Assembly (NCBI GenBank): GCA_951406725.2
Contig: OX597820.1
Location: 85,436,001 to 85,500,000 of the forward strand
Direction of reading: 5' to 3'
From: Octopus vulgaris
Taxonomy: Eukaryota
Length of the DNA stretch: 64,000 bases
Below the pieces are notes generated by a model, which saw only the letters and a list, made by a program, of their open reading frames with translations, ran no database searches and was not told where the DNA came from. Shown one piece after another: positions 56,236 to 59,523 of this stretch (position 1 is its first letter; the number at the start of each line of letters is the position of its first letter). The translations under genes were made by a program, and so were the position numbers.

Positions 56236-57223
56236 AGTAGACCGTCTGTATGTATATAATCATGGGAGTGTGCATACGGGTCCGTATGTCATTAAATAAT
56301 TTTGTTCAAATTTAGATGTGGGAATATTTAGCAAGAATATGCATTTTCTCCAGTGTGACGTAGGAGATTGTTTTCCTCATTAAACTTTTGTTATTATTTA
56401 AAATATGGATGTACAATTTGATATTACGGTTAATGTTTTTAGCCACGTAGCTATTCTATTTACGGAATTTTGTGGACGGGCAGAAAATGTTTTGGTCTTA
56501 TTAATAGGAGAAAATTCTTAACAAGTTATTTAGATGATTAAAAAATTTTAGGACAAACTTTTTATGACGATTAAAAAAATTTGGTAGAAGTCAGACGAGC
56601 TTTTGATTTAAATTTGAAATTTGTATAAATAAATATTATATTGATACAGATAGCGTGAATAATATTATTGATTTGTTTCTGAACGTTAATATTTAATGCT
56701 AATTTTATGCAAAAGTTTTACTGTCTTTCCAAACTTAATAATTGAAATGGAATTGATGTCACGTGAGATATTTTTACAGAATTTTCCAGCGTAATAATTT
56801 TCTTTGTAGTAATTGCATGATTTACGTTTTTCTCTTTCAAAATGTTTATATGACATTAAGTAAATTAGGACGAGCAAATGAATCTTCGTAAAATAATTTT
56901 TGAAGTTCAGATTCTGTACTATGAAACAGAAACCGGTTTGTGTCTGTAATCATGCGTTCACGTCTGCTTAAAAACTCAGCAACAGGTTTTTACAGGAAAA
57001 GGGATTAAAGCCAGGCTTAGAATTTTAAAATCAGATGAAACTTTTGTAATTTTTCATTATTTACATTTGACGGATATTTGCCATCATCTTGTTTTTTGTT
57101 AACACAAAGTTTCGGCTGACATACCCTCCAGTAGTCATTAGGTGTTTTGGGGAAATTTCGAACCTGGGTTTTCATTCCTAAGGTATTTTTCGATGTTATT
57201 ATTATTATTATTATTATTATTAA

Positions 57224-57295
57224 GGTCACTGTTTGGAATCAAACTCGAAATCTTGAGGTTAGTAGCCTGCGCTTTTAACCACTAAGCCATATGCC
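57224..57295 (-). promoter_or_regulatory. tRNA-derived Pol III promoter cassette (A and B boxes) in the Penelope 3' region
   Basis: Minus: GGCATATGGCTTAGTGGTTAAAAGCGCAGGCTACTAACCTCAAGATTTCGAGTTTGATTCCAAACAGTGACC. A-box TGGCTTAGTGG, anticodon-like loop CTACTAA, B-box-like GAGTTTGATTCC; about 30 nt after the ORF stop. Confidence 0.65.
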
Positions 57296-57875
57296 AGTGA
57301 GCAAATATGGAATGAATTTTAGGGATTATAAGGCTAAAATTGTTCTATCCTTCCTTAATACCGGTTCCCATATTCCACTCATTTCTGCAATTGGTCTGCT
57401 TAGGAGGTTGTTGTTTCCTAGCATATGTGCTGCTTCTTTTAGCTTTCGTATTTCCCAGTGGTGTTCTCTATTATTTTAACTTCATCCCACAGGGGGAGGT
57501 GATCTCCATTTTTCCATACATGATCAGCTATACCCGATTCATCAATACCTCATCTAGTCACAGCTTTGCGATGTTCCTCTACCCTTATTTTGAGGGACAG
57601 CATGCTTCGCCTTCGTACAACCTACCACAGCTGCATGGGATGGTGTATACGCAGTCTTTGGTCATATTCTCTTCTATTGGTAGTTTTACGCGGATATATT
57701 TGCGAACTGTTGTATTACTCTCGAATAGTCTCCTGATGTCATATGGGCCCCATATCTTTTGTATCTTTTCGGAGAGGTCTTTCACATAGGGTAGACAGAC
57801 TGTGGACAGTTTATTAGTTTTTATCCTCTCTTTTCTTCATAATTGGAGTGGGTAGCATGTTTTTAGGGTAGTTGT

Positions 57876-58213
57876 GAAGGCGCATGGCTCAGTGGTTAGA
57901 GCGTCGAGCTTACGATCGTGAGGTTGTGAGCTCGAATCCCGGACCGGGCTGCGTGTTGTGTTCTTGAGCAAGGCACTTTATTTCACGTTGCTCCAGTTCA
58001 CTCAGCTGTAGAAAGGAGTTGCGACGTCACTGGTACCAAGCTGTATCGACCTTTGTCTTTCCCTTGGATAACACTGGTGGCGTGGAGAGGGGAGGCTGGT
58101 ATGCATGGGCGACTGCTGGTCTTCCATAAACAACCTTGCCCGGACTTGTGTCTAGGAGGGTAACTTTCTAGGTGCAATCCCATGGTCATTCATGACCGAA
58201 GGGGGTCTTTACC
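57876..58213 (+). mobile_element. tRNA-derived SINE, family C, inserted into the Penelope ORF
   Basis: GGCGCATGGCTCAGTGGTTAGAGCGTCGAGCTTACGATCGTGAGGTTGTGAGCTCGAATCCCGG head, TTGAGCAAGGCACTT core, TTTACC tail. The Penelope frame rejoins across it (ILGN|NYPK). Confidence 0.9.
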
Positions 58214-58465
58214 TGTTGCCTAATATATTGTTACTGAGCTTGATCATTTCTTCATGGTGTGTATCATGATCGCTACGTATATTCTTTGCTCGCTGCTTTA
58301 GGCACTGAGCAATCTCTCTCTTTAGAGTTTATGGATGGTGGGAATTGAAGTTGAGGTATCGTCCAGTGAAGGTCGGCTTGCGGTATACGACTGTCCTGAA
58401 TCCATATATGGTGCGTGTTATTAATACGCCCATGAATGAGAACTCAGATTCGAAATTTCCCCAAG

Positions 58466-58509
58466 GCACCTGATGAAGGCTGATGGGTATATCAGCTGAA
58501 ACGTTGTGT
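58466..58509 (+). ncRNA. Minimal hammerhead ribozyme motif in the inverted Penelope terminal repeat
   Basis: GCAC-CTGATGA-AGGCTGAT-gggtat-ATCAGCT-GAAA-CG-TT-GTGT, with palindromic AACGTT stem III region. A degenerate sister copy lies on the minus strand at about 57100-57146. Confidence 0.75.
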
Positions 58510-59049
58510 AAACAACAAACTACATGAGGACAAATATCCGTCAAATGTACATAATGTACATAATGTACATAATTCCTCATCTCTTAGACATAGAACTGTG
58601 TTTTTCATTCATTACATGCTAGGCCACTAGTAATGGAACTTTCAAATATTTCTGATTACCTTTTGACATTAATTATTGATAATTTTCTGATAAATTTTCG
58701 GAATGAAAAAGCCCGCATTTTATTTACTGCCGACAAAGAGCTGCGCTGGCTTGGTAGATATGAAAATTTAGAATGTATAAGCACGGGGCATATACTGGAT
58801 TGCCTCGTGTATATATATATATTCAGCCTAAGGTGCACCAACTGAAGAAGGCTTCACCAAGCAAATTATTTTATTCGCTAAAAAAGTCTAAAAACTCTTG
58901 GTCCAAGAGTTAGATGGTAAATGTTTTTAGTTTTCATTTCTTTCGAAATTTTATCCCTAATAGTGGTTTGGAATTTAACTGCCTTCTCTAGCATGCAAGG
59001 AATCCATTGTATTTATATGAAAAACTATATATTCTATTTATTAATTCTA

Positions 59050-59273: not shown

Positions 59274-59523
59274 TGTTATTTTTATTCTTGTTTTTTTTTA
59301 AATAACAAGGTAAATTTTTTATTTTTCAATCCCTTCGAAATTGCTGTAAAAATGTGGCTTTGGTCGTTTTCACTTCTCCTTCTAGCGTGGAAAATTTATC
59401 TGTTAATGTTATTTTTATTCTTGTTTTTTTAAATAACAAAATTTTTTTTAATCCCTTAAATTGCTGTAAAAATGTGGCTTTGGTCGTTTCCTTCTCCTTC
59501 TAGCGTGGAAAATTATCTGTTAA
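59274..59523 (+). repeat. Tandem duplication (about 133 + 117 bp)
   Basis: TGTTATTTTTATTCTTGTTTTTTT...AAATTGCTGTAAAAATGTGGCTTTGGTCGTTT...CTTCTCCTTCTAGCGTGGAAAATT.ATCTGTTAA twice; the second copy differs almost only by deletions. Confidence 0.92.

Follow-up and report, generated by a model that had tools for sequence, protein, structure and literature searches.

In Octopus vulgaris, a Penelope/Poseidon family of PLEs possesses a pLTR that begins with a fixed tRNA-derived head, and this head is probably an internal Pol III promoter whose start point lies 6-7 nt upstream of tRNA position +1. The same repeat also forms the full element's 5' terminus and contains its start codon, and the whole element is without Pol III terminators; these points were absent from a preliminary description of the DNA. 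New here are the T4-free sense strand of 2.8 kb and three long copies that start at the head. Only tentatively do we extend the reading to an autonomous coding PLE that is transcribed from end to end by Pol III, has been purged of every T4 terminator over 2.8 kb and releases its terminal repeat in the form of a SINE. Such an element would unite a LINE-like master and a SINE, and its 835-aa ORF would be translated from an uncapped RNA whose first codons are the hammerhead.

The window, a 64,000-nt stretch of contig OX597820.1 (positions 85,436,001 to 85,500,000, forward strand), contains a decayed, 5'-truncated Penelope/Poseidon-type element on the minus strand (Table 1). Stop, spacer, head, AAT tract, hammerhead and terminus follow one another as first described, except that the spacer measures 29 nt (previously about 30) and the microsatellite reads (AAT)8AAC (previously about nine AAT units); in other copies the tract ranges from a few to more than 100 units. 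The tRNA-like cassette had been delimited at 57295-57224; the head is real, but the 5' boundary of the unit falls at about 57302, 6-7 nt upstream of tRNA +1. The final 14 nt of the spacer are an imperfect inverted copy of the first 10 nt of the head, and the two form a 9-bp hairpin. The PLE ORF is split by the later insertion of a SINE that belongs to a different family, outside the PLE family unit.

Table 1. Features of the window copy and its surroundings (positions in the window; numbers with a plus sign are counted from tRNA +1)
Feature	Position	Strand	Remarks
PLE ORF, C-terminal third (RT thumb and GIY-YIG-type endonuclease region)	57326..58440	-	5'-truncated, frameshifted
ORF stop TAA	57328-57326	-	
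Spacer, 29 nt	57297..57325	-	
Predicted Pol III start at -6/-7	57302-57303	-	within spacer
tRNA-derived head	57222..57296	-	colinear with tRNA numbering
A box, +8	57289-57279	-	in head
Anticodon-loop remnant in head	+32..+38	-	
B box, +53 (53-62)	57244-57235	-	C56 lost in window copy
(AAT)8AAC microsatellite	57195..57221	-	
ATG starting the 835-codon family ORF in 5' pLTR copies	57173..57175	-	
Type I minimal hammerhead	57101..57146	-	core mutated in window copy
AC-rich 3' part	57055..57100	-	ends at first of two recurrent 3' ends (short, tail-less)
Inverted, 5'-truncated pLTR copy	58435..58599	+	start-codon region, intact minimal hammerhead, ~30-nt PLE 'tail'
Unrelated tRNA-headed SINE, ~340 nt	57875..58214	+	later insertion into PLE ORF; 4-bp GTTG duplication

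The hammerhead is built of a stem I of 5 bp and a stem II of about 6 bp, with a palindromic AACGUU and a GUU cut site. In the forward copy of the window, the core carries the changes G5A and G16.2T and stem II is broken. Because of these changes and the loss of C56 from the B box, the window copy itself is likely inert. The inverted copy, formerly placed at 58434-58590, does have the intact core ascribed to it (58470-58476, with GAAAC at 58498-58502 and GUU at 58503-58505); it is without the head and (AAT)n, and is 83% identical to the minus-strand repeat over 123 nt (E = 4e-31). By eye, a direct repeat pair of about 120 nt was also seen at 59340-59520.

The family unit can be written as head-(AAT)n-ATG/hammerhead-ORF (835 aa)-stop-29 nt-head-(AAT)n-hammerhead-tail. 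In long copies, head, AAT tract, ATG, hammerhead and ORF are unbroken, and a majority line derived from 28 long copies contains a single ORF of 835 codons, which opens shortly upstream of the hammerhead and continues through it. The preliminary description had correctly placed a hammerhead in the terminal repeat; however, this hammerhead is not purely 3' non-coding, as the ORF ATG (57175) precedes it closely and the frame runs on through it. Three long copies (L132, L205 and L180) have their 5' end at the head and extend into the ORF. Five N-terminus-selected copies have a near-whole head upstream; in three of them (L212, L217 and L219) the end of an ORF or spacer lies still further upstream, so RNAs with a start beyond the head exist as well.

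The ORF showed an RVT_1 match in its RT domain (E = 5.6e-10), 37-53% identity to the best full-length PLE proteins and 35-40% identity to the Anolis PLE protein P0131; the family was also placed in a tree. A GIY-YIG domain had been assigned ahead of the stop. The stop was confirmed, whereas Pfam gave no direct GIY-YIG match in the family ORF, and we assigned the domain by homology of the C-terminal region with P0131 (35% over 326 aa, E = 1e-54). The C-terminus aligns with that of PAc, including the IPCSC, EH and IAxH motifs, conforms to the GIY-YIG/CCHH type and has no Neptune CxxC linker. A relative, P0121, with an N-terminus similar to that of the family, gave a weak GIY-YIG match (E = 0.23). 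Based on RT and C-terminal homology, we assign the family to the Penelope/Poseidon group. Two metagenome scans returned no DNA context of related PLEs elsewhere.

The family also has the hallmarks of PLEs: pLTRs, inverted 5'-truncated partners (which are common), an optional tail of 30-40 nt and a minimal type I hammerhead. In a sample of 93 hammerhead-bearing copies (see below), 3' ends fell into two clusters about 30 nt apart (24/93 and 64/93), which is the PLE tail signature. Many short copies (L194, L195, L198, L203, L206, L210, L214, L221 and L222) join the ORF N-terminus directly to a second piece of tail or hammerhead, and such joints suggest that re-priming at the RT start sites is frequent.

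To place the head among tRNAs, we aligned it with 27 distinct host tRNA genes (6 isotype labels). The best score was 54.5 for the window copy and 62 for the family majority line, the latter with tRNA-Arg. Shuffled sequences (300 for each) reached best-of-library scores of 26+-4.7 and 29+-4.7, respectively, and none of the 300 attained the score of the head in either case (z about 7); by this measure the similarity of the head to tRNA exceeds chance. Counted from +1, an A box from position 8, an anticodon-loop remnant at 32-38 and a B box at 53-62 stand where standard tRNA numbering puts them. ARAGORN detected no tRNA fold in the head and Rfam no tRNA at E<=10; Rfam likewise gave no hammerhead match at E<=10, there being no matching model. 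The calls of the head and the hammerhead thus rest on alignment and motif.

Conservation of the two boxes, on which the promoter proposal of the preliminary description hung, was found in the family majority line: both are canonical there with respect to the A- and B-box consensus, while the cloverleaf has been lost. Individual copies, which are 6-9% diverged, keep both boxes exactly in only 9 of 29 cases, and the PLE family is probably old. As candidate donors of the head, we also considered common SINEs. Three clusters of SINE-like heads, with 68, 22 and 6 members among the loci fetched, scored 50.5, 58 and 46.5, none of them surpassing tRNA-Arg (61.5).

The sense strand of the 2,820-nt majority line contains no TTTT run, whereas about 2.9 were expected from synonymous-codon permutation (P = 0.02-0.03), and no T4 site is common to more than 3 of the 28 long copies. 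Control ORFs from the same genome were not depleted: that of a Neptune-type PLE (a single copy, L297) has 6 runs (7.1 expected), and four LINE ORFs have 3, 13, 7 and 2 (P = 0.21-0.95). An additional short control ORF (L329, 397 aa) was also free of T4 (P = 0.097). G4 runs, too, are absent from the majority line (1.0 expected, P = 0.30). The strand is A-rich, with 21.7% T, and the absence of T4 is only moderately significant. A third-base codon model gave P = 0.005 for this absence but P = 0.046 for the control PLE, and was rejected as too lenient. The Neptune-type family from which the control was taken (L291-L312; L297, for example, at G000:C2:153874575-153878807) is young, with near-identical copies, and was probably active recently. 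Its ORFs are intact (about 1,000-1,100 aa) and encode a CxxC linker; the sense strand is rich in C/T and the 5' region in T.

The T4-free sense strand and the three long copies with a start at the head suggest that the coding element, too, may be transcribed by Pol III. Against such full-length Pol III transcription, Kojima (2024, PMC10886601) argues that Pol II is obligatory for the autonomous partners of Pol III TRIMs; and an uncapped Pol III RNA would need a cap-independent route of translation.

The 5' ends of the repeats were examined in the first 93, in list order, of 2,214 exact matches to a 32-mer of the hammerhead (89 of these loci on contig 1), a selection blind to the 5' side. No head was detectable in 36 of them, the break lying in or downstream of the AAT tract or the head being deleted. 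The 57 head-bearing copies comprised 33 that break at -8..+10 (25 directly and 8 fold-backs placed at -6 by rule), 16 that break inside the head and 8 that run upstream into the spacer or ORF. Breaks per nucleotide amounted to 0.059 in -8..+10, compared to 0.006 inside the head (P = 6e-14) and 0.0014 upstream (P = 1e-19); the -8..+10 interval was chosen after the data were seen, and the effect is tenfold. With the fold-backs excluded, the pile-up persisted (P = 3e-10). In a set collected by a head query, only 5 of 29 copies continue into true spacer or ORF. Solos that start at the head, which the preliminary description had suggested counting, are the commonest form. Sequencing runs assigned to six organisms contain part of the window, and none of those listed is recorded as RNA. 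In contigs of four runs, loose ends before the head stop in the -6 motif and carry unrelated upstream letters (79 contigs for X15 and 33 for X16); because the reference copy has a small deletion at this point and contig depth does not measure copy number, these counts are not taken as evidence.

The commonest direct break is at -7/-6, 13-14 nt ahead of the A box, a distance that fits the start geometry of type-2 Pol III promoters. From this fit, the canonical boxes and the lack of T4 runs, we infer a Pol III start at -7/-6. A Pol II Inr at -17 was also considered and rejected, the breaks at -13..-17 being fold-backs.

TSD-like repeats of at least 8 nt flank 5 of 10 clean solos, as compared with 2.2% of mismatched pairs; the solo L325 has a TSD of 16 bp, and TSDs of the family vary between 8 and 16 bp. 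Because TSDs flank them, the solos are read as separate insertion events. With a tRNA-derived A/B-box head, a defined 5' end at that head and dispersed insertions with TSDs, the solo resembles a SINE. It has no LINE-like 3' tail: its 3' ends are the two PLE tail positions, so that it is best called SINE-like, with a PLE as partner.

The pile-up has a second possible cause, since in read-through RNA the spacer-head hairpin (-9.6 kcal/mol by folding) spans -14..+10, the same site. In this main rival explanation, the head is a passive relic, transcription is by Pol II (host read-through or a tandem promoter, as in D. virilis Penelope), stalling or fold-back at the hairpin ends copies at -8..+10, and the solos are 5'-truncated PLE copies. 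Inverted or fold-back junctions do occur in 36 of the 57 head-bearing copies, but among copies with clean, non-inverted flanks 10 of 21 still break at -8..+10 (P = 6e-5). A stalled enzyme should stop mostly at the 3' foot of the stem (+10), whereas only 2 of 57 breaks fall at +8..+10 and 8 direct breaks at -8..-6. Tandem read-through copies exist, and the PLE promoters described in PMC2377424 have an Inr and a DPE; a passive relic would, however, leave unaccounted for both the boxes kept canonical in the majority line despite the lost cloverleaf and the lack of T4 runs. We consider this explanation unlikely.

Alternatively, the start at the head could be real but made by Pol II, with the tRNA-derived sequence or a TATA-like TTTATAA co-opted as core promoter. 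This would account for the pile-up and for a translatable capped RNA, and the majority line has the TATA-like word at -34..-30 relative to +1; yet so short a word is nothing unusual in AT-rich DNA, and canonical boxes at tRNA spacing and the absence of T4 would be left unexplained, which makes a Pol II start at the head improbable. A TATA-like word could equally serve TFIIIB. The stop codon (window ~57330-57326) lies inside this word, about 28 nt upstream of the predicted start, and solos lose the word. It could be an aid to TFIIIB or to Pol II, or be there by chance.

The family hammerhead reads CUGA(U/A)GA in 185 of 199 motif matches, its commonest 3' core is GAAACGUU (155 matches), and the core is intact in the majority line. 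Type I minimal hammerheads of this kind have been described for PLEs (PMC4209133). There are at least two subfamilies, with U or A at hammerhead position 7 (130 versus 55 motif matches) and a few apparently linked sites. The predicted cut follows approximately codon 24 and separates the head from the RT start sites. Solos retain sequence on both sides of the cut site (head and tail), and of 30 long, N-terminus-selected copies only 1 begins within 3 nt of it. Because of these two observations, we take genomic copies and solos to come from uncleaved RNA, and PAc was reported to insert uncleaved RNA in vitro (PMC11167929). Self-cleavage as a part of mobilisation, as first proposed, is not supported, while the captured tRNA promoter and the solo PLE-mobilised SINE of the same proposal agree with the fixed head, the head-starting solos and the canonical boxes, Pol III transcription itself being predicted. 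Since cleavage would cut the ORF and part head from tail, the hammerhead is likely an off-switch or a late processing step rather than a replication step.

The solo might instead replicate like Sm-alpha or animal retrozymes, with Pol III multimers cut by the hammerhead into monomers that are reverse-transcribed. It shares with Sm-alpha a tRNA head plus type I hammerhead (PMC6765202, PMC2770079), and with an intact core in the majority line and a few head-to-tail partial repeats (L315, L320 and L366) the parts for such a route are present. However, the copies are unpermuted at the cut, starting at the head and ending 45-90 nt past the cut; they span the cut without any pile-up there, so that they are not hammerhead-processed tandem units; and regular tandem arrays were not seen in the loci fetched. 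Copy geometry, including the near-absence of long copies starting at the cut, largely refutes this route, and we rate it as very improbable.

The head is fixed in the family. In a search by ORF sequence only, a head match follows right after the stop in 27 of 29 other loci, and its first nucleotides are preserved in the remaining two. Among the 72 copies of a larger set, also selected by ORF, the head is present in 63, represented by its 5' end only in 4 and absent in 5; two of the five are deletions, because their AAT tract and hammerhead remain. The preliminary description had allowed that most copies might lack the cassette, which is clearly not the case. One-off insertions do happen in this DNA, as the different SINE that splits the ORF of the window copy illustrates, but a single SINE insertion into one PLE copy as the origin of the cassette is refuted by the constant place of the head in the 63 copies and by 353 exact matches to the spacer-head junction genome-wide.

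The hammerhead 32-mer has at least 2,214 exact matches in the 2.8-Gb genome. Scaled by exact-match rates (9/63 and 4/49), rough totals are ~2,500 ORF-joined heads and ~27,000 hammerheads, and the family perhaps has 25-30 thousand copies, with solos outnumbering ORF-joined heads by about 10:1. In some copies (upstream flanks of L353, L362, L373, L329, L337, L342 and L357), the head is lost where another element abuts or interrupts (AAT)n, and three of these AAT-interrupted copies share the same upstream sequence. Because other elements abut or interrupt it in several copies, the AAT tract appears to attract insertions of a microsatellite-targeting retroelement.

For the reading with a Pol III promoter in the head, we propose the following mechanism. 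From the downstream pLTR, Pol III would produce an RNA of about 250 nt or more. The PLE protein would probably copy this short RNA in trans from two internal start sites; the two 3' end clusters match the two PLE RT start sites, which supports copying by the PLE, and such copying would explain why SINE-like solos with TSDs are in about tenfold excess. From the upstream pLTR, the same promoter could read the T4-free 2.8-kb unit into the next pLTR and provide a full-length template, a step that we regard as possible but hold with less than even confidence. cDNA reaching the 5' end of the RNA would likely snap back at the short palindrome there and give rise to head-to-head inverted copies, and the inverted copy of the head in the spacer may be a relic of such a junction. 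The protein could still be supplied by Pol II read-through.

Should Pol III also make the full-length RNA, this would contradict the usual view that coding retrotransposons need Pol II, and the family would offer a compact system for cap-independent translation and for the role of PLE hammerheads. The family also makes up a large part of the octopus repeat landscape, which automatic annotation would probably split into 'SINE' and 'Penelope'. The recently active insertions listed in a 2026 repeat annotation of O. vulgaris include 893 SINE families left unclassified and 30 Penelope families (PMC13282606); the structure of a tRNA-headed PLE does not appear in its main text as far as covered. The solo unit may already be catalogued as a SINE. 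Older work on octopus SINEs reportedly deals with OK, OR1 and OR2.

Our literature search, including a word search of the available text of PMC4209133, PMC8557442 and PMC11167929, found no autonomous PLE with a tRNA head; the portions of PMC6962438, PMC8967140 and PMC3653858 that were covered add nothing to the comparison. The closest coding relatives described are Anolis PAc (Frangieh 2024, PMC11167929) and D. virilis Penelope (Schostak 2008, PMC2377424). Like them, the octopus element has a single RT-plus-endonuclease ORF (835 versus 836 aa), pLTRs from partial tandems, an inverted 5'-truncated partner, an optional tail of about 30 nt, a minimal hammerhead that overlaps the start of the ORF and a probable promoter in the pLTR; in PAc, too, the ORF begins inside the hammerhead (PMC11167929). 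Unlike in both, its pLTR begins with a tRNA-derived A/B-box head, head-starting solos dominate and the sense strand is without T4. The D. virilis promoter is of the Pol II type, with Inr/DPE and an intron (PMC2377424), whereas the octopus ORF is continuous from the ATG in the pLTR.

Among LTR elements, the TRIMp3 groups Cassandra (5S), Helenus (tRNA) and Ajax (5S) similarly have a Pol III promoter derived from a small RNA in the terminal repeat, which likely makes the template RNA (Kojima 2024, PMC10886601). As described there, they are non-autonomous elements of 311-1263 bp with PBS and PPT, non-coding and with TSDs of 4-5 bp, whereas the octopus repeats flank a PLE ORF, have TSDs of 8-16 bp and are shared by the autonomous element and its short form. 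Animal non-LTR retrozymes (Cervera 2020, PMC7229834; Li 2026, 10.64898/2026.07.22.740005) and non-autonomous Chlamys such as MRC1 (PMC8557442) are likewise short non-coding, pLTR-related units moved by PLE proteins, but the retrozymes form tandem arrays processed to circles; a word search of the available text of these three sources found no tRNA head or Pol III promoter.

Schistosome Sm-alpha and Sj-alpha are similar in build, as high-copy SINE-like repeats with a tRNA-derived head and a type I hammerhead that are apparently transcribed by Pol III (PMC6765202, PMC2770079). According to the sections of these papers covered, they are non-coding repeats freed from multimers by cleavage, and no autonomous PLE is stated there to carry the head; in the octopus, by contrast, the hammerhead is the N-terminus of the ORF and copies come from uncleaved RNA. 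The octopus family offers a testable model of how tRNA-plus-hammerhead repeats such as Sm-alpha could have arisen. Finally, tRNA-derived SINEs (SINE2) share with the solo an A/B-box head, a length of 150-400 nt, dispersed insertions with variable TSDs and a 3' part common with the mobilising element. The partner of the solo, however, is a PLE instead of a LINE, and its 3' end is an internal RT start site instead of a poly(A) or repeat tail. The octopus solo is its partner's own terminal repeat, and the family shows how an autonomous PLE can lead directly to a SINE-like element, the short form being the terminal repeat of the master and not a foreign passenger.
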